Positions 5,391 to 18,005 of a DNA stretch of 32,000 bases are shown here, piece by piece. The stretch is from Sphingomonadales bacterium UBA7471 (GTDB taxonomy: Bacteria; Pseudomonadota; Alphaproteobacteria; Sphingomonadales; Sphingomonadaceae). Location: assembly GCA_002479765.1 (NCBI GenBank), contig DLOZ01000025.1, forward strand, positions 84,774-116,773. The letters are read 5' to 3'. The position numbers and the translations under genes were made by a program. Under the pieces are notes generated by a model, which was not told the DNA's origin, did no database searches, and was given only the letters and a program-made list of their open reading frames with translations. Position 1 is the first letter of the stretch. Every line of letters starts with the position of its first letter.

Positions 5391-5406
5391 GCGCTTTGTT
5401 TTTTCT

Positions 5407-5424
5407 TGTGTGTAACTTTTGTGT
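5407..5424 (+). repeat. Candidate arm-type site, motif B (GTGTGTAACTTTTGTGTA)
   Basis: 16 of 18 nt match GTGTGTCACTTTTGTGCA at 17958-17975, in the same orientation. Confidence 0.5.
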
Positions 5425-5476
5425 AGGTCTGAGCATGGTTTCGAGGCCGTTTAGAGAGCAGCTTAACTTCAATCGA

Positions 5477-5489
5477 ATCAGCGACTTAG
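5477..5489 (+). repeat. Candidate arm-type site, motif A (AATCAGCGACTTA)
   Basis: One mismatch to AATCAACGACTTA at 17938-17950 and 17993-18005. Confidence 0.45.
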
Positions 5490-5524
5490 CTGTCCTTAAG
5501 GTTACACACTGTGCGGCCTAATTT

Positions 5525-8500
5525 CTAGGCTACCGCACGCTCTCGTATTTCCTTAAGGACTGCCCTAATTTCGTCGACCCTTGCGATAGAGAAGATTGCA
5601 GTGGGTCCTGTAGAAGCAAGATCAATGAATGGGCTCTCATAGAGCCTTTCATCACTCATTGCACCATCTTGCGTCAGCTGATCCACTATTAGCTTCAAAA
5701 AGGTTATCTGCTTGGTGTTTGCACTAGTATCGCTCAAAAACCGCGCCATCGCCTCTAGAGCCGCATCCTTCTCTAAGCCAATCAGCGACCGAACGAATAG
5801 GCCAAGACCATTACCTTCTTTGCTAGCTTGCTCTACGAGCTCTTTATTGCCGTTGGCTTGCTCAAGCAGTATGCGCTCCAACTCCTCTAAATCGGTCTTG
5901 GTGATGGGCACATTCCTTCTGAGCTTGTTGAGGGCGAGGTTGTCTTGATACTGCCTCAAGAAGTCGCGTGTTTTCGCCTTGAACCGCTCGTAATCAATTC
6001 CGTCGCTGCCAATAGGCAAAGTGATTACCGTGCTCTCGCCTAGCTCGTCCTCAAAGTCGGTGTAGACGATATTGCGCTTGGTCTTCTCGATCAGCTTCAT
6101 AAGCATGCGCAACTGCTTGCGTACATGCTCCAACATTCCGACTGTGACGCCTTCCCACCACTCATCGGATGCGACGCTCTGAATAAGAGGCATCTGCGCA
6201 CGAATCGCAGGCACATTGCTCTGCTCCTCAAGCGCCATCATGATCTGCTGTATCACCGTACGCAGCTTCTCATCGACCGCAAGCATCTGCAGACAGTTGA
6301 GCTGAGCATTGAGAATCATGAAATCAAACCGCTTGGCTTCTTCTTCAGTGTCACGTAATTGTGAAGGAAGGTGGGCAAGGTTCTCAGCAATTTCAGTCAG
6401 CTCAGGATTACCCAAGCTCTTCCAAGCGTCCCTAACACTGTATTTTTCTAACCAAAGACGCTTGGGACGAACGATGATGTTGTCCAAGGTCATCTTGGAG
6501 ACGATCTCATATAAATGGGTTGCGAGGGAAGCTTTGAGGTTTTGTTCGTGCTCTCGCTGATCTTCTGAAGGCTTGGGTCTATTCTGATTGTCAATTTCAC
6601 CGATCAAACTGAGGCGCATCTTGAACAGCTTGGTGTCGAGGCTCTCAGTCTTGCTGCCATCAGTCAATTCAGGATTCTGATTGAAGTACTCGAAGTTCTG
6701 ACAGAAATCGAAGATGTAGAAAAACTTTTTGTGCTGATTAGGGCCATAGACGTTTTCACACAACCGCGTACCACGACCAATCATCTGCCAAAACTTTGTA
6801 CGGCTGTGGACTTGCTTAAAGAACACAAGATTTAGAATTTCAGGCACGTCAATGCCTGTATCAAGCATGTCGACACTGATGGCGATGTGCGGATCGCTTT
6901 CTTTCTTGCTAAAGCTGTCAATCAAGCTCTGCGCATACTCTGTCTTGAATGTGATAACCCTTGCGAAGGTGCCTTTGTATTGCGGATAATTGACGTTGAA
7001 CCGCTCTGCAATGAACTCAGCATGATCATTATTCTTGGCGAAGATGATTGTCTTACCAAGTCGATCACCGCTAGCTACACGCTCGCCTTTGGTCATGAGA
7101 TGCTCAAGAACACGGTCAACAGTGTCCTTGTTGAACAGCCATTGGTTCAGAGCTTTTGCAGAAACTTCATCAGGAGCTTCACCATCTCCCCAATCAAGTT
7201 CGTCCCACTGCTGCTTTTCTTCTTCGCTCAAATTCTCGTACTTGATGCCTTCGCGTTGAAAGCGCAGCGGCACTGAGACTGCGACAGGCGGAACGAGGTG
7301 CTTTTCGCGAATAGCATCTTCCAAGCTATAGGCGAATGTAGGGACACCTCGCTCTAGCTGAAACATGCGATAGGTGTTGTGATCAACCTCGTTTTTGGGT
7401 GTTGCTGTAAGTCCGACGAGGTAAGAGTCGAAGTAGTCGAACAGAGCGCCATATTTGGCATATATGCTGCGATGGGCTTCATCAACGATCACAAGGTCAA
7501 AGAAGCCAATGCCGAACTTGCGCGTCTCTTCCTTGCTGTTGTTGATGAGGTTCAGCATCGTTGGATAGGTGCTGACATAGACGCGACCATTGGCATCCGC
7601 GTCATCAAGCAGATTGACGATCCCTGCACTGCTGAGATGCTTACCAAACTCGCGTGAGGCCTGCTTCACGAGTGAAATACGATCTGCTAAGAACAGAACA
7701 CGTTTCACGTAATTGGCTCGCATCAGTAGATCGACAAGTGCGATCACTGTTCGCGTCTTTCCTGAGCCTGTCGCCATCACCACAAGGCTGCGCCGCTGCT
7801 TGTGCGTCTCTATCGCCTCTGCAACGCTGCGAATGGCCTGCTGCTGATAGACGCGACCTGCGATTTCGTCATCGATCTTGATGTCCGCGAGAACAGCCTT
7901 AGTGGTGCGTCGCTGCATCAGCAGCTCTAGCTCATCGCGAGTGTGGAATCCTTGTACACGCCTAGGCGGCGCAGCACTGTCATCCCAAAAGTGATGCTCA
8001 TAGCCATTGGTGTAGTAGATGACAGGCCTACGCTTGAATTTGGCCTCTAGGCAGTCTGCGTAGAGCTTGGCCTGCTGCTGACCCACACGAGGATCGCGCT
8101 TGGTGCGCTTAGCCTCAACGACTGCAAGCGGCAAACCGTCAGCACCCCATAGCACATAGTCAACAAAGCCGATGCCCTGATTGTTGGGCATGCCCTGCAC
8201 TTCATACTCGCGGTCTTGCGGTTTGTCTAAAGCAAACCCTGCCTCATTCAGCAGCAAATCAATGAAGTAGTCACGTGTCTGCTCTTCGTTGTAGTCGTGA
8301 GTGTCCTTGACGGCATCGTTGGCAGCGCGGACACGAGCGATTTCTTCTTGCAGCTGTGCAAGCTCTTCACGCAAGGCAACGTTGGCCTTCTCTTGCTCAC
8401 GCAGCTTTTCTTCAGTCGCCTCAAGCTGTGCGATTGGTATGGCCGCTTGCGTACGTGAAGGAGGCAGCTTGGCAGCGTCAAACTGCAGCGAAGGATTTGG

Positions 8501-8878
8501 ACGTTCACGCTGCCCATAGGTCCGCGCTAACCAATAGGCTACATGGAACAGCTCTTGGAGCAGTGTGACGGCGTCAGATTGCTTGCTGCCCTTGCCATGC
8601 GCAGCACGATTGCCGATCCCAATGATCACCGTGGACTTGGAGAAGATGGCCTCGCCCACCGTCTCTTTGAACCGTGGTTCGTGGACTCTTGCGCCAAGAC
8701 CTTCGTCATAGCAGTGAAGATTGCGATCTACGCGATAGAGCCATGCCACGATCTGTTCTAGCGCTATGCGCCCATAAAAGCAGGCCGCACGTGCATCGCT
8801 GTTGACATAGCCTTCGGCCTTCACGCAGGTGTCGTGAATTGCAAACCACTCACGCTGTAGGAAGGCAAAGTTACTCAT
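5525..8878 (-). CDS. hsdR: Type I restriction enzyme R subunit (EcoEI-like helicase-nuclease with N-terminal DUF4145-like extension)
   Basis: The 1117-aa product has an N-terminal IGNRAAHGKG region and a coiled coil. A PD-(D/E)xK region reads FVDYVLW...VVEAKR. SF2 helicase motifs are MATGSGKTRT, VIVDEAHRS and LTATP. The ATG lies 1 nt after the hsdS stop. Confidence 0.95.
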   Translation of the reverse strand: MSNFAFLQREWFAIHDTCVKAEGYVNSDARAACFYGRIALEQIVAWLYRVDRNLHCYDEGLGARVHEPRFKETVGEAIFSKSTVIIGIGNRAAHGKGSKQSDAVTLLQELFHVAYWLARTYGQRERPNPSLQFDAAKLPPSRTQAAIPIAQLEATEEKLREQEKANVALREELAQLQEEIARVRAANDAVKDTHDYNEEQTRDYFIDLLLNEAGFALDKPQDREYEVQGMPNNQGIGFVDYVLWGADGLPLAVVEAKRTKRDPRVGQQQAKLYADCLEAKFKRRPVIYYTNGYEHHFWDDSAAPPRRVQGFHTRDELELLMQRRTTKAVLADIKIDDEIAGRVYQQQAIRSVAEAIETHKQRRSLVVMATGSGKTRTVIALVDLLMRANYVKRVLFLADRISLVKQASREFGKHLSSAGIVNLLDDADANGRVYVSTYPTMLNLINNSKEETRKFGIGFFDLVIVDEAHRSIYAKYGALFDYFDSYLVGLTATPKNEVDHNTYRMFQLERGVPTFAYSLEDAIREKHLVPPVAVSVPLRFQREGIKYENLSEEEKQQWDELDWGDGEAPDEVSAKALNQWLFNKDTVDRVLEHLMTKGERVASGDRLGKTIIFAKNNDHAEFIAERFNVNYPQYKGTFARVITFKTEYAQSLIDSFSKKESDPHIAISVDMLDTGIDVPEILNLVFFKQVHSRTKFWQMIGRGTRLCENVYGPNQHKKFFYIFDFCQNFEYFNQNPELTDGSKTESLDTKLFKMRLSLIGEIDNQNRPKPSEDQREHEQNLKASLATHLYEIVSKMTLDNIIVRPKRLWLEKYSVRDAWKSLGNPELTEIAENLAHLPSQLRDTEEEAKRFDFMILNAQLNCLQMLAVDEKLRTVIQQIMMALEEQSNVPAIRAQMPLIQSVASDEWWEGVTVGMLEHVRKQLRMLMKLIEKTKRNIVYTDFEDELGESTVITLPIGSDGIDYERFKAKTRDFLRQYQDNLALNKLRRNVPITKTDLEELERILLEQANGNKELVEQASKEGNGLGLFVRSLIGLEKDAALEAMARFLSDTSANTKQITFLKLIVDQLTQDGAMSDERLYESPFIDLASTGPTAIFSIARVDEIRAVLKEIRERAVA

Positions 8879-8879
8879 G

Positions 8880-9980
8880 TCAATTCACCGCGAATGATTC
8901 ATTTTGTAGCGAAATACGCAGAGCCAATAAATGCTGCTTGCTCACTTCAAAATCTGTACGACGATGTTCCATTTCATTTACAAGCGCTGCAAATTTATTC
9001 TGCAACTGAATGGGTGGAACAATGATTTCTCGGCTGCGCGAAGTTGAGAGTGTTATGAATGGCTGACCTGCACCACGAACGTCCCATGACTTCTCATCAT
9101 TCAAAATTTGGAACAAAAAATCGATATTAATCCGATCTGATTTGGGTTTTATTGTTATTGTGTTTTTGATTGCCGTCCACTTTCCACTCGCTTTAAAACA
9201 CTTCCCACATCTTGCTCCAATAGCAGACAAAACGATGCCTCTACCATCATGCTCTGCTTCGGCAAGGAACCCATCCTGTCCTGAAGCACTGAAAGCAGGT
9301 ATTCCATCGTCGATATAACTTGCTTTGGTTATAGACGTGTTTCCCCATTCAATATCACACAAGCTACCGAGTTTGGTTCTCGACCAATTTTTGTTATTGG
9401 GTTTGTCATTTCCAAACATCTCGATGAACACACTTTCTGCAAGCTGATCAAGCTTTTCGATCGCAGTCTCACGTAAGCGCAGTAGATTGTCAGCGGTGTC
9501 CAACAGCGCGGCGATGCGCTGCTGCTCTGCGAGGGGTGGGAGGGGAATTTGTATTTTTTCAACGATAGACTTCGACACTTCCTTAAACGTTGCTCCGACG
9601 CCCATCGCCTCAATACGAGGCCTACTATATTTCAACAAATGAAATAGAAATTTAGAATCAAGGACAGAATGCCTTGGAACGAAGCTCTTAAAACCCTGAT
9701 TTGTTGCCATTGGTACACGATTGATAGCAACCAATCCAATCGGAGCTCGTGAACTAAACAGAACAGAGTTAATGGGCAGTACTGCTGCTGCGCAACTATC
9801 AAGACCTCTCTTCGTAATGCGCCGTGACGTCTTTTCGATATACGTTTCTCTTAGATCGCTTAGGTCCTTCGGAGTCGCCCAATAATGCTCGCCATCCCAA
9901 TACTCTGAAACGCTTGTACTAGGCGTTGCACCACTAACGATTTCGCAAACGTCACCCAATCGAACAAGAGGCCACGTCAT
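8880..9980 (-). CDS. hsdS: Type I restriction enzyme specificity subunit
   Basis: The 366-aa product has two variable halves. They are separated by the conserved helix LPPLAEQQRIAALLDTADNLLRLRE, and the protein ends with PPIQLQNKFAALVNEME. It overlaps the hsdM stop by 4 nt. Confidence 0.9.
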   Translation of the reverse strand: MTWPLVRLGDVCEIVSGATPSTSVSEYWDGEHYWATPKDLSDLRETYIEKTSRRITKRGLDSCAAAVLPINSVLFSSRAPIGLVAINRVPMATNQGFKSFVPRHSVLDSKFLFHLLKYSRPRIEAMGVGATFKEVSKSIVEKIQIPLPPLAEQQRIAALLDTADNLLRLRETAIEKLDQLAESVFIEMFGNDKPNNKNWSRTKLGSLCDIEWGNTSITKASYIDDGIPAFSASGQDGFLAEAEHDGRGIVLSAIGARCGKCFKASGKWTAIKNTITIKPKSDRINIDFLFQILNDEKSWDVRGAGQPFITLSTSRSREIIVPPIQLQNKFAALVNEMEHRRTDFEVSKQHLLALRISLQNESFAVN

Positions 9981-11515
9981 TTCAGCATTCCCTCAAGCTG
10001 CTTGAGACCTGCCTGAATCTCCGCTTCGAGAGCATTTAGCTCCGCTATCAACTGCAGAGGTGGAACATGCTCGACCTGCTCATGCACCACTTCCTTGTAT
10101 CGGTTCAAGCTGAGGTCGTAGTCAGCAGCGGCAATCTCTTCACGCGACACTGCAAAGCTCTGCTCAGTGCGACCACGTTTCCGCTCTGTCCCCTCACGCT
10201 CGTGCCATCGTGAGAGCACATCCGCAAGATTGTTCTTGGCATACTCATCAGCTGTAAGTGCTCGTGATGGATGCGTTCCCAACAGCTCTGCATCAAGCAA
10301 GGGCTGTCGCTTGTCATCCAAGCTCCAACCATCTGCGGTCATGTCATAAAACCACACCGTGTCCGTGCCGCCGCTGTTGGTCTTGGTAAAGAACAAGATC
10401 GCTGTGCTGACGCCTGCGTAGGGCTTGAACACGCCACTAGGCAGAGACACCACAGCATCAAGCTTCTGCTCTTCCACGAGTATGCGGCGCAGCTCCTTGT
10501 TGGCCTTGCTCGTCTTGAACAACACACCATCAGGGACAATCACAGCAGCACGGCCACCTGCCTTGAGCAGCTTGAGGAACAGTACGAGGAAAAGCAGTTC
10601 TGTATTCTTGGTCTTGACGACTGAGAGCAAGTCTTTGGCAGTGCCATCAAAGTCCAAGCTGCCTGCGAAGGGTGGGTTGGCAAGGATGAGGCTGTATTTT
10701 TCATCCTCAACCGCATAGTCCTGAGACAGAGAGTCTCTGTAGGTGATGTTGGGATTCTCAACACCATGCAAGAGCATGTTCATGCTGCCAATACGCAGCA
10801 TAGTGGTGTCAAAGTCATAGCCGTGGAACATATGGTTGTGGAAGTGATCACGGCTCTTGGCGTCCGCAAACAACTCTGTGCGCCGCTCGCGTAGGTACTC
10901 GCCTGCCGCTACAAGGAAGCCACACGTGCCACTCGCAGGATCACAGATCACGTCCTTGGCCGTGGGCTCGACCATCTCCACCATGAGCTTGATGATGTGG
11001 CGTGGTGTGCGGAACTGTCCGTTTTGGCCTGCGCTCGCGATCTTGCTGAGCATGTACTCATACAGGTCCCCCTTGGTGTCGCGCTCCTCCATGGGTATCT
11101 GATCAAGGAGGTCCACAACCTTGGCGAGCAGCGCAGGCGTGGGGATCGTGAAACGTGCGCCCTGCATCTGCTTGGCGTAGGTGCTGTTGTCGCCCCCTAC
11201 CTCACGCAAGAAGGGAAACACGTGTTCGCTGACCGTAGTGAACATGTCTTGTGGAGCCATGTTCTTCAGTCGGCTCCATCGCATGTCGTCGTACTTGCAG
11301 CCCTTACCGTCAGAGCCGCTTGGGAAAATCTTGCGCTCTTGTGCTCTTCCAAGCTGACGGCTTTTGTTCTCTTCTAGCGTCTCAAGCTCATCCAAGCGCC
11401 GTAGGAACAGAAGGTAGGTGATCTGCTCAAGCACTTCCAAAGGGTTAGCGATGCCGCCTGACCAAAAGCTGTCCCACACCCTATCGACTTGTGACCGCAG
11501 CTCACCTGTAAGCAT
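9977..11515 (-). CDS. hsdM: Type I restriction enzyme methyltransferase subunit (N6-adenine)
   Basis: The 512-aa product has the SAM motif VICDPASGTCGFLV, the catalytic LANPPFAGS, and an HsdM N-terminal helical domain. Confidence 0.95.
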   Translation of the reverse strand: MLTGELRSQVDRVWDSFWSGGIANPLEVLEQITYLLFLRRLDELETLEENKSRQLGRAQERKIFPSGSDGKGCKYDDMRWSRLKNMAPQDMFTTVSEHVFPFLREVGGDNSTYAKQMQGARFTIPTPALLAKVVDLLDQIPMEERDTKGDLYEYMLSKIASAGQNGQFRTPRHIIKLMVEMVEPTAKDVICDPASGTCGFLVAAGEYLRERRTELFADAKSRDHFHNHMFHGYDFDTTMLRIGSMNMLLHGVENPNITYRDSLSQDYAVEDEKYSLILANPPFAGSLDFDGTAKDLLSVVKTKNTELLFLVLFLKLLKAGGRAAVIVPDGVLFKTSKANKELRRILVEEQKLDAVVSLPSGVFKPYAGVSTAILFFTKTNSGGTDTVWFYDMTADGWSLDDKRQPLLDAELLGTHPSRALTADEYAKNNLADVLSRWHEREGTERKRGRTEQSFAVSREEIAAADYDLSLNRYKEVVHEQVEHVPPLQLIAELNALEAEIQAGLKQLEGMLK

Positions 11516-11576
11516 AATTTGTTACTCAATCCGTTTCGTTGACCTCTGCAAGGGCCGCGCAAAACAGCCCTTTTCG

Positions 11577-11605
11577 TTGACACTAGACTATGCCGTTGGT
11601 AGAGT
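11577..11605 (+). promoter_or_regulatory. Candidate sigma-70 promoter (TTGACA, 17-nt spacer, TAGAGT) for the H-NS-like/HEPN-like cassette
   Basis: TTGACA lies at 11577-11582 and TAGAGT at 11600-11605, 38 nt upstream of the ATG at 11643. The -35 element overlaps the second copy of the direct repeat TTTCGTTGAC. Confidence 0.4.
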
Positions 11606-11642
11606 CTTGTGTCAATTAAATCACTTCACTAAGGAACGCCTT

Positions 11643-11879
11643 ATGGGTCGCGTAGAAGAGCTTTTGGCAAAACAGAAACAGATCGAAGAAGACATCAAGC
11701 TCGCCATGGAAGAAGAGCGTGATGCCGTAGTCGCTGAGGTGCGTGAGAAAATCAAACGCTTCAATATCTCAGCCACTGAGCTTAAGGGACTTGTTAAGGG
11801 TCGCGTTACGCAGAAGCAGGTTGAGGATTACCTGAAGCGCAAGCAAGGCACAAAGACAGCGGCCAAGAAGAGCAAATGA
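11643..11879 (+). CDS. 78-aa H-NS N-terminal-domain-like protein lacking a DNA-binding domain
   Basis: An ATG at 11643 is preceded by AAGGA. The product MGRVEELLAKQKQIEEDIKLAMEEERDAVVAEVREKIKRFNISATELKGL has a coiled coil followed by an F-x-I-S-x-x-E-L segment, as in proteobacterial H-NS/HvrA-type N-termini. It ends in a short lysine-rich tail, with no C-terminal TWTGRG-type DNA-binding motif. Confidence 0.45.
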   Translation: MGRVEELLAKQKQIEEDIKLAMEEERDAVVAEVREKIKRFNISATELKGLVKGRVTQKQVEDYLKRKQGTKTAAKKSK

Positions 11880-11894
11880 TCACAAGGACTGTTG

Positions 11895-12470
11895 ATGCCC
11901 AATGCTCTCAACCTACCTGACCGATTTGGTAGATTTCGCCGATTAGCGCGAAGCACGTCACGAACTGAAGCTGCTTTTTTACTTAATCGCTTTGCCTATA
12001 GATATCGCCTTGCCAAGGATTTCGATGGCATTGTCGCACCCAATGTTGGCCAAACACGGCTTGGATATGAGCTGATTATTCGGCTCTTTTTGGCCTACAC
12101 AGCATATGAAGCTCTGATAAGCGCCGCACGGAAACTCAGGATCAAAGAGCTCCAATATCTCAGCAATAATTCAATCCTCAATGAAGCGTTAGCCAAGGCA
12201 CTGCGCAAAAACACTCAACTGAAATATTATCTACTTCAATACAAGCACAATGATGACGCTCGCGAGAAACTTAATACGTTTTATCGCACCTCACATGACG
12301 ATGTGCTTTGTATTGCATACGCTGTACGGAATACCTTTGCGCACGGCGACCTTACTGCTTCCGCGATCGGATTGAATAAGAAAACTAATAGAGACTCTCT
12401 CGAAAAACTCACAGAGGCGATTTTTGCTTACTGCAATGATAACTTTGTACGATGTATTGAAAGATTATGA
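11895..12470 (+). CDS. 191-aa hypothetical protein with an RNxxAHG motif (candidate HEPN-superfamily, Abi_2/DUF4145-like)
   Basis: An ATG at 11895 lies 6 nt after AAGGA. The motif AVRNTFAHGDLT fits the HEPN Rx4H signature. The rest looks helical, and FAYRYRL faintly recalls the Abi_2 YYRL motif. The gene starts 15 nt after the upstream gene stop. Confidence 0.4.
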   Translation: MPNALNLPDRFGRFRRLARSTSRTEAAFLLNRFAYRYRLAKDFDGIVAPNVGQTRLGYELIIRLFLAYTAYEALISAARKLRIKELQYLSNNSILNEALAKALRKNTQLKYYLLQYKHNDDAREKLNTFYRTSHDDVLCIAYAVRNTFAHGDLTASAIGLNKKTNRDSLEKLTEAIFAYCNDNFVRCIERL

Positions 12471-12553
12471 CTGCGCGCCAATGTCACCGAAGCAGATCAG
12501 ACAAAAATAGATTCACTCTACAAAAACCAACTTAGGCCGAAAGGGGCTTCGCC

Positions 12554-12895
12554 ATGGAAGACAACAAGATCAGCAACAAAGACCTTCTCAATATTATCAA
12601 GCATGGTCATGCATGGCCTGCAGATAAGATAAGAGATGCAATCCTCGAACTTTTGAGGTCTAGCTCTGCTCCGTACAGCCATGAGCTCGATTTCGATAGA
12701 GATGACAAGTATCACTTCATCTATGATGAGGAGTGCTACCTCTTTATCTTCGACGGAAAAATCGAATTAAGATGCGACAGAGATATTGGCACGAATGCGA
12801 ACAAAACCTTTGTTCATAAGATCAGCGAAGAAAAAGATATCACAGCTGCATATAAAGCCTTCAAGGCGCTGATCGCAGAGGCTGAGGAAGACTAG
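12554..12895 (+). CDS. 113-aa acidic hypothetical protein
   Basis: An ATG at 12554 is preceded by AGGGG. No motif was recognised. The ORF is D/E-rich (DFDRDDKYHFIYDEECYLFIFDG, AEAEED), and the reading frame is clean in AT-moderate DNA. Confidence 0.55.
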   Translation: MEDNKISNKDLLNIIKHGHAWPADKIRDAILELLRSSSAPYSHELDFDRDDKYHFIYDEECYLFIFDGKIELRCDRDIGTNANKTFVHKISEEKDITAAYKAFKALIAEAEED

Positions 12896-12898
12896 CCT

Positions 12899-13474
12899 CT
12901 AGACCAATTCAACGGCCTTGCGCTTCATGGCGTCATTGACGTCGATGTAGGCTTGTGTGGTGCTGATGTTGCGGTGTCCTGCGAGACTCTGCAGTACCCT
13001 TACACTCACACCCTTCTCAGCTAGGTTGGTAATGAAGGTTCTGCGTGGACTATGGCTCGTAGCGCCCTCTATGCCGCAGCTGCGAAACAGATAGTGGAAG
13101 AATTGGCACAGCGTGTTGGCCGTAAAGCCATCTGAGTCCTTTTTCTGCGTATAGAACAGCTTGTTAGCGAGCGACTTGGGCGGCACGCTCTTGACGTAGG
13201 CCTGCAGCTCCTTGCGCAGCTTGTCGCTCACAAAAACAGTCCTCCCATAGCGCCCTTTGGTCTGCTCAGCGTCCAAGCGGATTTCACTGCGCACAGCACC
13301 CTCAACATCAAGCACGTCCTCGTAGCGCAGCGCAGCACATTCCCCTACACGCAAGCCTGCTAGGTACATGGTCTGCAGCATTGCCCTATTCCGTGCTGCA
13401 TGACGTCTAGTTGCAACGTAATCAAGCGCCCTACGCAGCTCTACTGCAGTGAGTGTTTTGGCTTGCTTGCTCAT
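12899..13474 (-). CDS. Short tyrosine recombinase (FimB/FimE-sized, about 191 aa)
   Basis: Catalytic set: R in LAGLRVGECAAL, K in TKGRYGRTV, HSPRRTF (HxxR), AGHRNISTT (H), QAYIDV (Y). The HAARNR segment resembles FimB HAARNY. The start is placed at 13474 (TAAGGAAAGCACTA-ATG); a GTG at 13564 is an alternative. Confidence 0.8.
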   Translation of the reverse strand: MSKQAKTLTAVELRRALDYVATRRHAARNRAMLQTMYLAGLRVGECAALRYEDVLDVEGAVRSEIRLDAEQTKGRYGRTVFVSDKLRKELQAYVKSVPPKSLANKLFYTQKKDSDGFTANTLCQFFHYLFRSCGIEGATSHSPRRTFITNLAEKGVSVRVLQSLAGHRNISTTQAYIDVNDAMKRKAVELV

Positions 13475-13610
13475 TAGTGCTTTCCTTAATGTAAGCTTTT
13501 TAGTGCTCAAATTGTATTTTCTTTGATTCTGCTTTCCTACCGATTTTGGAGATTGCTTGCGCACAGTGTTTTCCTCAACGAATTCATGGAGTTACGCCTT
13601 CTCAAGCGCA

Positions 13611-13650
13611 AAACCAAAGCTTTTGCGTATTAGCTTTGGTTTTTTATTTA
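13611..13650 (+). terminator. Plus-strand intrinsic-terminator-like hairpin
   Basis: AAACCAAAGC (13611-13620) pairs with GCTTTGGTTT (13633-13642) and is followed by TTTTTATTT. An alternative pairing, CGCAAAA with TTTTGCG (13621-13627), competes for the left arm. Confidence 0.4.
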
Positions 13651-13815
13651 GCGGAAATTGTGTGGCTTTTGAGCAACGGCGGTTTAAACAGCACTACAGC
13701 AGCCTACAGCTGCCCTGCCCTTGCTGCGCTACCCAAGCCTAGCTAGCGTGCATGCGTGCGCTTGTAGGGCTTTTTAAGCAGTCGCTGTAGGATGCACTGC
13801 TTAGGAGCAGCAAAC

Positions 13816-14349
13816 ATGCCCAATTCTAAATTTACGCCCTCCGCCTACATCTTCACGGACGCTGTACAGCCTCGCTACACGCAGACATATGCAAATACGT
13901 TTTATGAAGAGCTAGACGTCAAGGATGCCCTGACGGACTCGATGGAAAAGACATCGCCCTCACTACACGATGCCGCAGTGAGCCTTTGGCATGCAGGGCT
14001 TTGTAAAGGCAGTGACAAAATCTTCGCGATATATCAACCAAGTGTGAAGCGCCTTCAATTGGCAGCTATAGCTGATTCAAGCAGGCCAATCGTGCTGATC
14101 GACACAAGAGAGAAGGCAGTCCTTTTAAGACGCTATCGAGCGGCTTTTGAGCTGATCGGAATGTATCGTACACGGCTTAGTGGTTTAGAGCCGATTAGAC
14201 GATCAATCCGATTGCCTAGCGCAAGCAAGACGAGAAACATTGATCAGCTGAGGAAGCGACTGCAGTTTGAGGAACGCGAACTATCAGAAAATATAAACCT
14301 CATGATGGATTTAGTTCTTCGTCAGTTTCGACAAGATCTATTTTTATAG
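13816..14349 (+). CDS. 177-aa hypothetical protein
   Basis: An ATG at 13816 lies 8 nt after AGGAG. No recognisable motif was seen. The C-terminal part is arginine-rich and helical (RLQFEERELSENINLMMDLVLRQFRQ). Confidence 0.55.
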   Translation: MPNSKFTPSAYIFTDAVQPRYTQTYANTFYEELDVKDALTDSMEKTSPSLHDAAVSLWHAGLCKGSDKIFAIYQPSVKRLQLAAIADSSRPIVLIDTREKAVLLRRYRAAFELIGMYRTRLSGLEPIRRSIRLPSASKTRNIDQLRKRLQFEERELSENINLMMDLVLRQFRQDLFL

Positions 14350-14513
14350 GTACAGCGCTTAATTATGGTGAAGATCGAATAGCTGACTGCTTGTTTACTT
14401 TGATGTCCGAGCTACGCTCGAACACCTCAAGCTGTTTCTTCTCTCACTAGCGTTCGTTCAGAAATAGCTTTCGTATTTTTTATTTTTCTCCGATCTTTAC
14501 TAGGAAGAGCACA

Positions 14514-14543
14514 AGCCACGCCCTGCTAAAGGGCGTAGCTTTT
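14514..14543 (+). terminator. Intrinsic terminator-like hairpin, 165 nt downstream of the 177-aa gene
   Basis: AGCcACGCCCT (14514-14524) pairs with AGGGCGTaGCT (14530-14540) around a 5-nt loop and is followed by TTT. Confidence 0.5.
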
Positions 14544-15054
14544 GACAATCTCTTTACTGAGGATTGACAACTGATATACACACAACTTGCTTGGTCGCAA
14601 GGTAAGGTAGGTTTTGCTATCACCTTTTATGTGCTCGCCTAACGCAGCACACTCACAGCCTATATCAGTAGCATTGTGGTGTGCATGTGGGTTTAATTGT
14701 GGCGTTCCCACTCACTTTCAGCCTATACATATTCGTACTTGCCTACATTCACGCATTACTGCGTTACCAACCATTACAGCATCGCAAACAGAACTGCCGC
14801 ATAGGGGCGTCGTTTAAGGCATCCAATGACTAGCATTGGGTAGTGCGATGAAGCGAACAGTGAGATGTTCGTTTGCTTACCGTCACACATCAGAACGGAT
14901 TTCGCAGCACTATAACAATCGGCGTGCTAACCTTTAATCCTCACTTTTTCATAGTTATTTATACAAAACCAAAGGATAGGAGAAATTTTCTGTTCGGTTG
15001 TCCTTAGTGTTATCAGAAGTTAAATTTAAGGCTCCACTTAAGAAAGGAGCTTTT

Positions 15055-15495
15055 ATGAGCACACTAGCCAAACTGAAGCTTGTAAGCAGCAAGCGAAATC
15101 GTACCGTTAGCCCTACAGTGCATCGTAGGAACAAGCTTTCTAGCAAGATTTACGAGCAAATTGAGGTGGTAAAAGCACTTAAAGAAGGCCGTATTTTCGC
15201 TCCAACCAAGCTTAAGACAGTCCGTAATGCAGAGACAGGTGAACGAAAAACCATAGAAACTGCCAAGCGTGTAAAGGAGTGGTTTTGGACCGCAGAGGGC
15301 GGAAAGATCAACCTTAGCATCCGTTATGGCAGCAAGGTTATTGAGCTCGCCAAGGGCAAGAACGCCATTGAGGTAGCAAACACTGATGAGCTGCTGACCA
15401 CACTGCAGCTGATCAAAGACGCTGTATTGGCAGGCGAGCTAGACGAAGCAATTACGAATGCAAGCGACAAGCTGCGCTCAGGCTTTGTGAAATGA
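15055..15495 (+). CDS. 146-aa hypothetical protein with a basic N-terminus
   Basis: A strong SD (AAAGGAGC) lies 4 nt before the ATG at 15055. The product MSTLAKLKLVSSKRNRTVSPTVHRRNKL...KRVKEWFWTAEGGKINLSIRYGSKVIELAKGKNAIEV looks like a conserved island-borne family that I cannot name with confidence. Confidence 0.6.
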   Translation: MSTLAKLKLVSSKRNRTVSPTVHRRNKLSSKIYEQIEVVKALKEGRIFAPTKLKTVRNAETGERKTIETAKRVKEWFWTAEGGKINLSIRYGSKVIELAKGKNAIEVANTDELLTTLQLIKDAVLAGELDEAITNASDKLRSGFVK

Positions 15496-15501
15496 CGCAC
15501 A

Positions 15502-15540
15502 AGGGGCTGTCTGAGTTGGGCAGCCCCTCGTTTCCTTTCT
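15502..15540 (+). terminator. Intrinsic terminator-like hairpin after the 146-aa gene
   Basis: AGGGGCTG (15502-15509) pairs with CAGCCCCT (15521-15528) and is followed by CGTTTCCTTTCT. Confidence 0.5.
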
Positions 15541-15566
15541 GAATAAATAAAAGAAAAGGAGACGTC

Positions 15567-15917
15567 ATGCGCTACATGGAATTCGCTGATGCAGAAGCAC
15601 AGCTTGGACTACTTCGCACCATCATCGACAACACGTGGGCGGCTATAGCGAAGCAAGCTGAAGATCAGAAAAAGGCAGAAGCACTGCGAGCAGCGCAAGA
15701 AAAGGCTAAACCTAGACAGAAGCGGCCTAGTGTTGCAGCGCCTATCAAGCCACTGCCGCCACAAAAGCCTATCGCGCCATTGAAGCCTAAACGGCCCAAA
15801 GCACAGACTGATGCAGCACCTACAAAGGCGGAACTTCTGCAGCCACAGCGACCTATTCCACCAAAGAAGCCAATTGGTGTGAATAATCGTGCGAAAGATT
15901 CACGGTCTAGCGCCTGA
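15567..15917 (+). CDS. 116-aa protein with a helical N-terminus and a proline/lysine-rich tail
   Basis: The SD AAAGGAG lies 5 nt before the ATG. The tail reads PIKPLPPQKPIAPLKPKRPKA...PQRPIPPKKPIG. No TM segment is apparent. Confidence 0.6.
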   Translation: MRYMEFADAEAQLGLLRTIIDNTWAAIAKQAEDQKKAEALRAAQEKAKPRQKRPSVAAPIKPLPPQKPIAPLKPKRPKAQTDAAPTKAELLQPQRPIPPKKPIGVNNRAKDSRSSA

Positions 15918-16059
15918 CCCTACACATTATTCGTGGTTGACGGAGTTGCCGAGAGGCATAGTCCGAAAGGGGTCTTGTGCCCAATTTTTCTGAGCCGCGA
16001 TTTTTCTATGTGGAGTACTTACAGATTTGGGGTGGTGATTTTTACTCACCCCATCAGCC

Positions 16060-16551
16060 TCATTGCTTGAAGTACTTCAATATCTCCACAATGTTGTTGG
16101 CAATCGAGGATGTTTGGTGATCTTTTGAAGAAACTACCTCGGACAGGACCTGCTGATAGCGAACAACATCAACTCCGCAAGCACGCATGATCTCAAGCTC
16201 TCGCTCATCCTTTAGTACAGCACAGACGAGAATGTATTTCCATACAACATTTGGCAGGATGCTATTGCGCTTGTCGACCTTGCGCTGACTTGTGAATTTT
16301 TTGGCCACCCATTGTTCAACGCCTTCACGAAGCTCATCATCGGTTCGGCGTCGTGCGTTGGTATCACCTCCAATGTAACCCACAGGCCTAAAGCTCACTT
16401 GCACTTCTACGTGCCAACACTCAATGGAGTTATCTGCGTACTTAATCGCCAAAAGGTCAATTTCATCAACGCCACACTTGACGCCGCGCATTGTGAAAAA
16501 GCCGCGTTGGTTTAGCCAATGCTCAACAATCTCTTCATCTAAAACAGCCAC
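16060..16551 (-). CDS. 163-aa PD-(D/E)xK-like (YraN/NucS-style) putative nuclease
   Basis: The helix EEIVEHWLNQRGF is followed by GVDEIDLLAIK (D) and CWHVEVQVS (E-x-Q in the E-x-K position). The GTG start lies 14 nt after the integrase stop, preceded by AAGGGA. Confidence 0.45.
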   Translation of the reverse strand: MAVLDEEIVEHWLNQRGFFTMRGVKCGVDEIDLLAIKYADNSIECWHVEVQVSFRPVGYIGGDTNARRRTDDELREGVEQWVAKKFTSQRKVDKRNSILPNVVWKYILVCAVLKDERELEIMRACGVDVVRYQQVLSEVVSSKDHQTSSIANNIVEILKYFKQ

Positions 16552-16565
16552 GTCTATCCCTTTCT

Positions 16566-17855
16566 CTATTTAGGAACTAAAAGGCCGTCTCTGTATTCAA
16601 ACTGCGGCAAGGCATTGGTGATCATCTTTGCTTCGGTGGTATGGTAATAGGTGCGCTCTATCTGCGCTGTGCTTGTGCCGCAAGTTTCAGCGACTTGTGT
16701 GGGCGTTGCACCTCTATTGATGCGATCCGTAATGAAATAGTGTCGGAAGCTGTAGGGCACGAGATCGCGACTATCAGTATCCTTGATCTCTGCAAGCTCA
16801 ATTATCTTGTCGAAATTGTATTGAATAGCTCTTGCAGTAATCGGCGTCGTCCCATTAGTGCTAAAGATTAGTGTCTCACCAAAGGATAATGCCTTTTTGT
16901 TTTCCTTATTCACTCTCACATAGCGAGCATTGAGTAGCTTGAACAATTCTTCAAAATACTCCCAATCCTTGACCACAAAGCGTCGTGTCTTTCTGACCTT
17001 TGTCGTCTCAGCTCGCACTGTGATTTTGACGAGGCTGTAAACCTCATCTTCGTCATGCCCCTTAACGTTTTGCTCCATCCATTCGATATCACGCCAACGC
17101 AACTGCAGCTGCTCGCCTCTGCGCAGGCCTGTAATGATGGATATCAGCAGATAGTAGGCCGTAACGATCTTGGTCAAATTGCCGTCTTCATCAATCGCTT
17201 TTCTTGCGGTTGAAATGTAATCTTCTAGCTTGGTTTTGATCGAGACGATTTCTTGATCGGTGAACGTACTACGGCGCAGCGCCTCGTCGCCCCTATCGAT
17301 CCGCTTGAGTGGTTTGAAGTCGAACGCTTCAATATAGGTCTCATTGCGCTTGTAGAGCCAAGCGATCATTGCATTGATCGTGCTCTGCTCATTTGCAACG
17401 GTAGTTTGACTGACGTTGATGTTCTTCTTTGTTTTGGTACGACTATGCAGATAGTTTTCACAATCCGTGCGTTCCATTTCCTTGAGCTTGGTATCGCGTC
17501 CGATGTAGTTCAGCCAATGCTCTAGGTGAGTTTTTATCGTTCCATAGCGACCTTTGACGATCAATTCGGCCTCTACGTCCTTCTCTCTCTGCTTTAGGTA
17601 TTCCTCTACGCCTTGCTTAGTGGTCTTGGAAAAGTAGGTCTTGCCTGCGTACTGCTGCGCCATAAGCTCGTGATAGTGCTTTTTGGCCTTGTCGATTGCT
17701 GTGTCCCTATTTCTCGTGCGCAGACTGAAACGTGCGTACTTCTTTTCCTTAGTGAGCCACATACGCATCTGCCAATAGTCGCCTCTCCGATAGACGACTG
17801 CTTCGTCAAAGATCGGAATTTCATCGTCTGCGTATGACTGTTTCTTGAGGGGCAT
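16566..17855 (-). CDS. int: Tyrosine-type site-specific integrase of the island
   Basis: R in GLRRGEQLQLRWRDI, YSFRHYFIT (xxxR-H), and a catalytic Y in AQIERTYYH. A SAM-like N-terminal domain is present. The start is uncertain: ATG at 17855, or TTG at 17927 as in the ORF track. Confidence 0.85.
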   Translation of the reverse strand: MPLKKQSYADDEIPIFDEAVVYRRGDYWQMRMWLTKEKKYARFSLRTRNRDTAIDKAKKHYHELMAQQYAGKTYFSKTTKQGVEEYLKQREKDVEAELIVKGRYGTIKTHLEHWLNYIGRDTKLKEMERTDCENYLHSRTKTKKNINVSQTTVANEQSTINAMIAWLYKRNETYIEAFDFKPLKRIDRGDEALRRSTFTDQEIVSIKTKLEDYISTARKAIDEDGNLTKIVTAYYLLISIITGLRRGEQLQLRWRDIEWMEQNVKGHDEDEVYSLVKITVRAETTKVRKTRRFVVKDWEYFEELFKLLNARYVRVNKENKKALSFGETLIFSTNGTTPITARAIQYNFDKIIELAEIKDTDSRDLVPYSFRHYFITDRINRGATPTQVAETCGTSTAQIERTYYHTTEAKMITNALPQFEYRDGLLVPK

Positions 17856-17927
17856 GTGAGGCTTAGGGTCACTACGTTTTTGAGCAGCTACAGCAGTGTG
17901 TAGCTTTACGTGTAACTTTAAAGCCAA

Positions 17928-17958
17928 CGCCCAACTAAATCAACGACTTAGTTGGGCG
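17928..17958. repeat. 10-bp inverted repeat CGCCCAACTA/TAGTTGGGCG enclosing a motif A copy, directly upstream of int
   Basis: The stems lie at 17928-17937 and 17949-17958. The intervening sequence plus the edges of both stems spell AAATCAACGACTTA (17937-17950). Confidence 0.6.
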
Positions 17959-17975
17959 TGTGTCACTTTTGTGCA
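17958..17975 (+). repeat. Candidate arm-type site, motif B (GTGTGTCACTTTTGTGCA)
   Basis: 16 of 18 nt match the copy at 5407-5424. Confidence 0.5.
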
Positions 17976-17991
17976 ACTCAATTATCGTTTA

Positions 17992-18005
17992 AAATCAACG
18001 ACTTA
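17992..18005 (+). repeat. Candidate arm-type site, motif A (AAATCAACGACTTA)
   Basis: Identical to the copy at 17937-17950. It lies 12 nt from the guaA-proximal core. Confidence 0.5.

Follow-up and report, generated by a model that had tools for sequence, protein, structure and literature searches.

The window analysed here, a stretch of 32,000 nucleotides (nt) of contig DLOZ01000025.1 from Sphingomonadales bacterium UBA7471, contains beside a type I restriction-modification (R-M) operon a gene for a basic protein of 191 amino acids (aa), called F191 below. F191 belongs to a conserved family with an invariant Rx4H motif and is predicted to be all-helical. In the window and in related loci it lies on a genomic island, where it is followed by a slot for exchangeable, characteristically acidic small proteins and then by a short recombinase gene (sInt) on the opposite strand. 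We propose that F191 is an R-M-linked, HEPN-like module into which different acidic partners are plugged. For the full mechanism, which is set out below, a probability of about 40% seems appropriate, and our confidence in the descriptive architecture is much higher. An initial annotation of the window, made from its letters alone, had tentatively read F191 and the acidic 113-aa protein encoded behind it (F113) as a two-gene cassette of a HEPN-like toxin or abortive infection effector and its neutralizing partner. The two open reading frames (ORFs) are as it described them: they share a strand, are separated by 83 nt, and the second has a Shine-Dalgarno sequence of its own.

The F191 family and its likeness to HEPN domains

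An exhaustive profile search for the F191 family yielded 716 clusters at E ≤ 1e-3; with E ≤ 1e-10 as the limit, the number is 466. Members named by their source are all labelled 'hypothetical protein', none of them carries a precomputed Pfam domain, and domain fusions among the longer members are uninformative. F191, F113 and F78, the product of the small gene upstream of F191, give nothing above threshold in Pfam, NCBIfam, PADLOC or PHROGs, and a check for a phage or satellite origin found no homologues in IMG/VR or among GenBank phages. F191 is basic (pI 9.75; family median 9.4). The initial annotation took both ORFs for genes, and they are indeed conserved coding genes. The ratio of nonsynonymous to synonymous substitution rates (dN/dS) of F191 against the closest relative locus, L001, is 0.145, indicating purifying selection. 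The dS of F113 in the same comparison is saturated, and therefore its status as a real gene rests on its conservation in nine database homologues, which are 46-65% identical. Between the window and L001, dN is 0.205 for F191 and 0.271 for F113 as against 0.028 for hsdM and 0.047 for sInt, while dS is similar and near saturation for all genes; the F191 and F113 proteins thus appear to evolve faster than their flanks. F78 is more conserved than F191 in this pair.

Is the motif of F191 a coincidence? By our own rough estimate, a bare Rx4H occurs by chance in about 1 in 5 proteins of this size. R145, H150 and G151 are invariant in the 77 close homologues (N146 and E72 are conserved in at least 90%), and because of this invariance the motif is a family signature beyond chance. 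Among 114 more diverse representatives, R145 and H150 are nearly invariant (at least 90%) and G151 is invariant; residue 146, when it is not N, is S or H. A second invariant block, R36-Y37-(R38)-L39-A40 (RYRLA, with R38 in about 90%), falls within the helix spanning residues 24-41.

The all-helical character that had been suspected from the sequence is borne out by an AlphaFold2 model built with the 77 homologues, which has a mean pLDDT of 93.9 and consists of eight helices: 24-41, 52-80 (containing E72), three short helices forming an insert, 138-149 (with R145 and H150 at its end) and 163-190 among them. According to Anantharaman et al. (2013, PMC3710099), the HEPN core is a four-helix up-down bundle in which an Rx4-6H motif closes helix 3, helix 2 bears a conserved acidic residue, and an insert separates these two helices. 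The helix order, the insert, E72 and the motif position in the predicted structure of F191 match this layout. The hallmark of HEPN proteins, Rx4-6H with a polar residue after the R, had been recognized in the initial annotation within the segment AVRNTFAHGDLT, and is present as R145-N-x3-H150.

Profile comparisons point weakly in the same direction. When the 114 diverse members were scanned one by one with hidden Markov models (HMMs), the families matched weakly by at least two of them included HEPN_RiboL-PSP (six members), HEPN_Apea (two) and the HEPN family of pEK499_p136 (two); nearly all of about 100 other families were hit once, evidently at random. The HEPN_RiboL-PSP matches are collinear, residues 144-181 aligning with positions 152-183 of the 191-position model, and in one other member the N-terminal region aligns with positions 28-94. 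The best E-value for this model, 0.0022, does not reach the threshold, and F191 of the window scores 15.6 bits against a cutoff of 28.4.

Several results count against the assignment. No HEPN-clan model exceeds its threshold for F191 or the 114 relatives, only 10 of which have any weak match to a HEPN family. A Foldseek search of PDB and BFVD with the F191 model returned no significant match and no HEPN structure at E < 0.1, HEPN entries ranking seventh or lower with TM-scores of about 0.3. Sequence and profile searches of the PDB were empty for F191, as they were for F113 and F78. Thus, in favour of the HEPN reading of the initial annotation are the invariant motif, its position, the insert and the glutamate, and the HMM searches add recurrent weak matches to HEPN families; against it are Pfam scores that stay below threshold and a fold search that finds no HEPN-like fold in PDB or BFVD. 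Membership of the HEPN superfamily, short of demonstrated, appears to us rather probable, and F191 most likely carries a divergent HEPN-type RNase domain resembling RiboL-PSP.

Three narrower assignments were rejected. F191 is not a DUF4145 protein (PF13643), no match to this family being found for F191 or the 114 relatives. The initial annotation had likened F191 to the N-terminal DUF4145 region of the neighbouring HsdR; the likeness shrinks to the motif xNxxAHG, with a BLASTP E-value of 18 and an hhalign alignment of only 14 residues at a probability of 0.24%, and HsdR has G at the place of the invariant R of F191. This region of HsdR (8504-8878, minus strand), which belongs to the HEPN clan and lies about 3 kb from F191, has the sequence GNRAAHG with G where the catalytic R is expected, and therefore HsdR carries a HEPN-type module of its own, possibly inactive. 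A PrrC/RloC-type anticodon nuclease was set aside since F191 has only 191 aa, is all-helical and matches no ATPase family. As for HEPN-MNT pairs (HepT-MntA), the absence of an MNT partner, already noticed in the initial annotation, holds: no nucleotidyltransferase domain occurs in F78, F113 or any sampled slot protein.

A slot with interchangeable acidic partners

About 90 related loci were collected, and the neighbours of F191 were mapped in 79 with local HMMs; most loci are short metagenomic contigs, some of them near-duplicates, and gene calls are simple ORF picks. In loci L001-L012 and L016-L078 (about 76 loci with F191), a variable R-M or methylase module is followed by F78 (in part of the loci), F191, a slot of zero to five genes, sInt on the opposite strand, a backbone and a large integrase. 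sInt is a short Xer-like tyrosine recombinase that comprises the catalytic domain only and matches only the C-terminal halves of the XerA/C/D models. Of the 28 loci that continue for 2.5 kb or more beyond F191, 26 have sInt downstream of it, the median distance being 528 nt. The upstream module may be of type I, MmeI, Eco57I-like or Dcm type or contain N6/N4 methylases; at least 14 of the 23 loci that extend far enough have a methylase or R-M gene within 7 kb upstream of F191. The location beside a type I R-M operon (hsdR/S/M), pointed out in the initial annotation, is part of a linkage that is consistent across related loci.

What occupies the first position of the slot? F113, with 25 D+E against 16 K+R and a pI of 4.96, is found there in 13 of the roughly 76 loci, and a 149-aa family (F149) in about 19. 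The remaining occupants are proteins of 216, 181, 136, 130, 115, 153, 274, 514 or 555 aa, so that at least 11 unrelated families, F113 and ten others, share the position. Common ancestry among them was sought with hhalign, which gave at most 18% (F149 versus the 216-aa family) and less than 4% for all other pairs. The AlphaFold2 model of F113 is of moderate confidence (pLDDT 65), and for this reason the lack of a significant match in its fold search carries little weight. The distance from F191 to the next gene is mostly -20 to +4 nt in related loci; the window, with 83 nt, departs from this. The genes farther along the slot are of mixed kinds, coding for secreted, membrane and redoxin-like proteins.

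The partners are exchanged. Partner types are interleaved over the F191 tree, and F191 copies at least 75% identical carry F149, F113, 215-aa or 181-aa genes. Where near-identical F191 genes have unrelated partners (as in L056/L058 and L016/L046), the DNA sequences remain similar up to and including the F191 stop codon and part at the start codon of the partner; on the sInt side, the cargo terminates at the sInt stop codon or runs over it. Conversely, F113 proteins with 60-70% identity come from loci in which F191 identity is only about 35%, and therefore the cassette moves between lineages. The slot thus shows conserved flanks and variable content in close relatives, as a mobile-element cargo hotspot does.

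The cargo of the first position is nevertheless of a particular kind. The initial annotation had noted the acidity of F113, which turns out to be characteristic of the position: an acidic product (pI < 6) is encoded first in the slot at 44 of 50 loci and by 10 of the 11 families; among later slot genes the figure is 3 of 30, and among the other ORFs in the same loci it is 9-20%. The family-level binomial p lies between 3e-8 and 2e-4, depending on the background, and this bias argues against random cargo. Free swapping of partners and a strong acidity bias are not fully reconciled with each other.

A possible course of events is as follows. F78, F191 and F113 would form one operon transcribed from the promoter-like site that begins at 11577. 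The basic F191 would act as a metal-independent RNase through its R145/H150 site, and whichever acidic protein is plugged in behind it would bind F191 and restrain or direct it. The module might back up the adjacent R-M system as a second line of defence, by way of abortive infection or of island maintenance. Cassettes would be exchanged by recombination in the conserved flanks, namely the 3' ends of F191 and of sInt. A more explicitly modular organization is conceivable, though doubtful to us: a two-component system of a basic HEPN-type RNase with any of at least ten structurally unrelated small acidic partners, exchanged as single-gene cassettes between the fixed effector gene and the short recombinase gene and travelling with R-M systems on islands. 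The acidic partners would then be nucleic-acid-mimic inhibitors or trigger-specific sensors, and the stimulus to which the system reacts would be determined by the identity of the partner, not by the effector.

Several findings sit uneasily with our proposal. The slot is empty in L043, where an intact F191 is directly convergent with sInt. The first-slot gene is on the opposite strand in L026 and L028, and is a basic protein of 555 aa in the F555 clade. No cargo gene matches a known defence family; in PADLOC and Pfam searches of the slot genes, the sole hit was one HsdR C-terminal fragment. Remote F191 homologues occur in other contexts (L083, L088 and L089). Unrelated partners behind near-identical F191 proteins are hard to reconcile with a specific protein-protein interface.

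In the main alternative, F191 is a regulatory or housekeeping gene of the island backbone that happens to border a cargo hotspot, and the acidic proteins are independent cargo that does not act on F191. Small size and acidity are properties of anti-restriction proteins such as Ocr and ArdA, and the acidic proteins would most plausibly be DNA- or RNA-mimic anti-restriction or anti-defence factors aiding establishment of the island in new hosts. Free swapping and horizontal movement of the partners, the empty slot beside an intact F191 and the mixed nature of the later slot genes all favour such a hotspot. So do the occurrences of F113 apart from F191: Polynucleobacter sp. QLW-P1DATA-2 has it next to sInt, and another, unrelated contig has it beside a MunI/MT-A70 pair. 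An F191 homologue on a Kosakonia conjugative plasmid also counts in favour, since it neighbours an orphan DNA methyltransferase and a DUF1380 gene, a gene set that we take to be typical of plasmid leading regions. On the other hand, searches with the slot proteins gave no match to ArdA, Ocr, KlcA or other families of Pfam, the restriction of acidity to the first position and its frequent translational coupling to F191 are left unexplained, and the invariant Rx4H-G points to catalysis rather than to a purely structural or regulatory role. We consider this explanation unlikely, if worth keeping in view.

The fixed pair of the initial annotation, with F191 as a HEPN toxin or abortive infection effector and F113 as its dedicated neutralizer, fares worse. 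Its layout, a basic toxin gene followed by that of an acidic partner, resembles that of rnlAB and lsoAB (Table 1 of PMC3710099), F113 directly follows F191 in all 13 loci that have both, and the two genes diverge together between the window and L001. However, the neighbourhood survey contradicts it: the two families are not co-conserved, and the position is shared by 11 unrelated families, whose type does not follow the phylogeny of F191. One slot is empty, F113 occurs without F191 (L013-L015), and the F113 family has nine database homologues as against several hundred for F191. A dedicated pair is therefore improbable.

Could F191 instead serve the recombinase? sInt has no core-binding domain, and therefore F191 might be its partner, a DNA-binding or directionality accessory in a cassette-exchange platform, whose Rx4H might be used in nucleic-acid binding or cleavage during recombination. 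The bracket formed by F191 and sInt is the most conserved feature of the region and persists in a remote clade (P0141), where F191 is only about 25-30% identical and an sInt orthologue is kept three genes downstream; sInt matches the catalytic half of the Xer models only; the cargo begins at one stop codon of the bracket and ends at or across the other; and two F191 family members give weak matches to Phage_int_SAM_4. However, neither conserved direct or inverted repeats nor att-like sites flank the slot or sInt in the window and 15 other loci, homologous recombination in streamlined genomes accounts just as well for the sharp junctions, sInt occurs without F191 in L013-L015, and Foldseek finds no integrase-like fold for F191, all of which leaves an accessory role little probability. 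Because conserved repeats are absent from these 16 loci, an integron-like or FimB-like switch was rejected as the leading model; sInt matches integron-integrase models only over its last 50 or so residues, and far too weakly (52 bits against a cutoff of 265).

Least probable of all is a toxin-antitoxin (TA) pair of F78, as DNA-binding antitoxin, and F191, as toxin, with irrelevant slot genes: a small first gene, the 15-nt spacing, co-occurrence in 22 loci and the higher conservation of F78 would fit a type II TA layout, but most F191 loci lack F78, which is replaced by F94 and F122, an integrase, unrelated 358- or 452-aa genes or nothing, and F78 has no recognizable antitoxin fold or family.

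The island and its neighbourhood

The features of the window that bear on F191 are listed in Table 1.

Table 1. Positions of F191, its motif and the surrounding features in the window
Feature	Position	Strand	Description
Type I R-M module	5525-11515	-	NCBIfam and Pfam matches
hsdR	5525-8878	-	N-terminal DUF4145
hsdS	8880-9980	-	
hsdM	9977-11515	-	
Promoter-like site before F78	11577-11605	+	TTGACA-17-TAGAGT, extended TG; consensus scan only
F78	11643-11879	+	78 aa; 15 nt upstream of F191, co-oriented
F191	11895-12470	+	191 aa; ATG start 7 nt after AAGGA
AVRNTFAHGDLT	12321-12356	+	F191 residues 143-154
RNTFAHG core	12327-12347	+	R145-G151; C-terminal end of helix 138-149
F191/F113 spacer	12471-12553	+	83 nt
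F113	12554-12895	+	113 aa, acidic; AAAGGGG Shine-Dalgarno-like site
sInt	12899-13474	-	191 aa from MSKQAK; ORF open to 13564; Pfam Phage_integrase 2.5e-28
DUF6641 protein	14998-15495	+	Pfam 1.3e-12; island backbone gene, found in 22 related loci
Large tyrosine integrase	16566-17927	-	Adjoins guaA; right end of low-GC island
guaA	18017-19591		

The hsdR/S/M genes lie immediately upstream of F191 and are transcribed divergently from it. The consensus scan that gave the promoter-like site before F78 also gave a second such site, divergent on the minus strand and facing hsdM, and the intergenic stretch containing both is 91-97% identical to that of L001. F191 has an alternative in-frame TTG start at 11892, which would add one residue. 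An RNA antitoxin or other noncoding RNA was looked for in the spacer between F191 and F113, which has no terminator-like site, Rfam match or tandem repeat. sInt is convergent with F113, 3 nt separating it from the F113 stop codon. In the upstream region of the sInt gene, at 13610-13643, is a perfect 12-nt palindrome (AAAACCAAAGCT / AGCTTTGGTTTT) with a 10-nt loop, which could be an operator or a terminator. Next to the large integrase, a 163-aa ORF (16060-16551, minus strand) has no match in Pfam, NCBIfam or PHROG and contains GVDEIDLLAIK...HVEVQV, which looks like a PD-(D/E)xK nuclease motif.

F78 is basic (pI 9.7), begins with a coiled coil and ends in a tail rich in Lys and Ala. These parts look like an H-NS-type oligomerization helix with a histone-like tail, but the resemblance finds no support in profile searches. 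It lies directly upstream of F191 in 22 loci and is probably encoded by the first gene of the F191 operon.

From hsdR to the large integrase (about 5.4-18.0 kb), the GC content is 44-54% as compared with 58-62% for the host, and the region 5400-18000 looks like a horizontally acquired integrative island of about 12.5 kb beside guaA. No att direct repeat of at least 18 nt that would define its left boundary was found. The initial annotation mentioned neither F78 and sInt nor the acquired island next to guaA. F191 is a fixed gene of a family of small integrative islands in freshwater Betaproteobacteria.

Islands of the same type can be inserted elsewhere. In Polynucleobacter asymbioticus (L081, 8928-12033), the island adjoins recA-recX and DUF2878, not guaA; F191 there has a 4-nt overlap with the preceding gene, of 358 aa, and two genes for acidic proteins (115 and 134 aa) come after it. 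In several clades, a pair of genes for proteins of about 555 and 460 aa stands just before or after F191 (L007, 6595-9634; L075; L085). The 460-aa protein has the sequence ILGDSGGYQIG, which we take to resemble the DSGGFQ of tRNA-guanine and DpdA transglycosylases, and has no match in Pfam or the PDB; the pair may be a DNA-modification module. Other members of the family stand farther apart. In L083 (3798-10646), a 282-aa member whose C-terminal extension is rich in Cys is encoded immediately ahead of genes for AddB-like and AddA-like helicase-nucleases, and two remote homologues with 27-30% identity are located on plasmids. One, on the conjugative plasmid pKS2022 of Kosakonia sacchari (L088, 5046-10556), is accompanied by an orphan DNA methyltransferase, a DUF1380 gene and a 200-aa integrase; the other, on pPABL048 of P. 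aeruginosa (L089, 6902-7510), is the last gene of a polysaccharide-biosynthesis operon of Pseudomonas megaplasmids.

Significance and comparison with known systems

If the acidic genes are unrelated cargo, the locus is an ordinary island hotspot beside an uncharacterized conserved gene. If our proposal is true, a family of at least 700 clusters that databases leave unannotated joins the R-M-associated HEPN effectors, with an unusual organization in which a constant candidate nuclease is combined with interchangeable acidic partners in a recombinase-bounded slot. It would offer a natural system for studying the rewiring of effector-modulator pairs and a pool of more than 10 unknown small acidic proteins as candidate inhibitors or anti-defence factors. 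It would also be the first mobile defence-island family to be described from Polynucleobacter and its relatives, abundant freshwater bacteria whose immune repertoire is poorly known. In the databases searched and in the literature on DUF6641, RiboL-PSP and Polynucleobacter islands, we found nothing that describes the F191 family or its arrangement.

How does F191 compare with systems already described? Among HEPN families, RiboL-PSP-HEPN (PF18735, clan CL0291) is the only one with recurrent weak, collinear HMM matches to the F191 family. Both domains are about 190 aa long, with R-N-x3-H closing the penultimate helix at the same relative place (residue 145 of 191 in F191, model position 152 of 191); both have helices inserted ahead of the motif helix, and the second core helix of each carries a conserved acidic residue. 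Unlike RiboL-PSP-HEPN, F191 has an extra invariant RYRLA block and is not fused to an L-PSP/RidA domain; its matches are well below the gathering score and Foldseek gives no support.

In RnlA-RnlB and LsoA-LsoB, as in the F191 loci, the gene of the proven or candidate effector precedes that of a small partner; the toxin of these systems, a HEPN-type RNase, works against phages through abortive infection. However, RnlA is a three-domain protein of about 357 aa with RnlB as its fixed cognate partner, whereas the partner of F191 comes from at least 11 families and can be absent. RnlA has no sequence match to F191, a single family member giving one weak match to RnlA_toxin_N. PrrC and RloC share with F191 the linkage to type I R-M systems and the concept of an RNase held in reserve behind restriction. 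They have an N-terminal ABC-type ATPase and sit inside the hsd operon, whereas F191 lacks an NTPase domain and is found alike with R-M systems of type I, IIG, IIS-like and Dcm type.

In Tn3-family transposons (PMC7157771), TA pairs are integrated into the recombination module, and toxin-type genes, HEPN/MNT pairs among them, likewise stand next to the site-specific recombinase as a component of the mobile element itself. F191, in contrast, has no MNT or other fixed antitoxin, is convergent with sInt without a shared promoter/res region, and resides on an integrative island, not a transposon. In the hotspots of P2/P4 (PMC9122126) and of integrative islands, conserved core flanks bracket variable content with breakpoints at gene ends, just as F191 and sInt do. 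There, however, the cargo consists of recognizable defence systems, whereas that of the F191 slot is mostly single small acidic proteins; moreover, one flank, F191, is itself a candidate effector and the first position has a strong physicochemical bias.

Small HEPN-type proteins or domains have been found in or beside R-M operons of many types (DUF4145, ApeA, EC042_2821 and pEK499_p136), and a second-line or suicide role has been proposed for them (PMC3710099). The HsdR of the window is itself an example, carrying DUF4145 with xNxxAHG. F191 differs from these families in that it stands alone, is divergent from the R-M genes, has no significant similarity to DUF4145, and is tied to a recombinase-bounded slot with acidic partners, an association not described for the named families. 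Thus, F191 is closest to the R-M-embedded HEPN families and the mobile-element cargo hotspots, and it differs from both in its interchangeable acidic partners and the recombinase-bounded slot that receives them.

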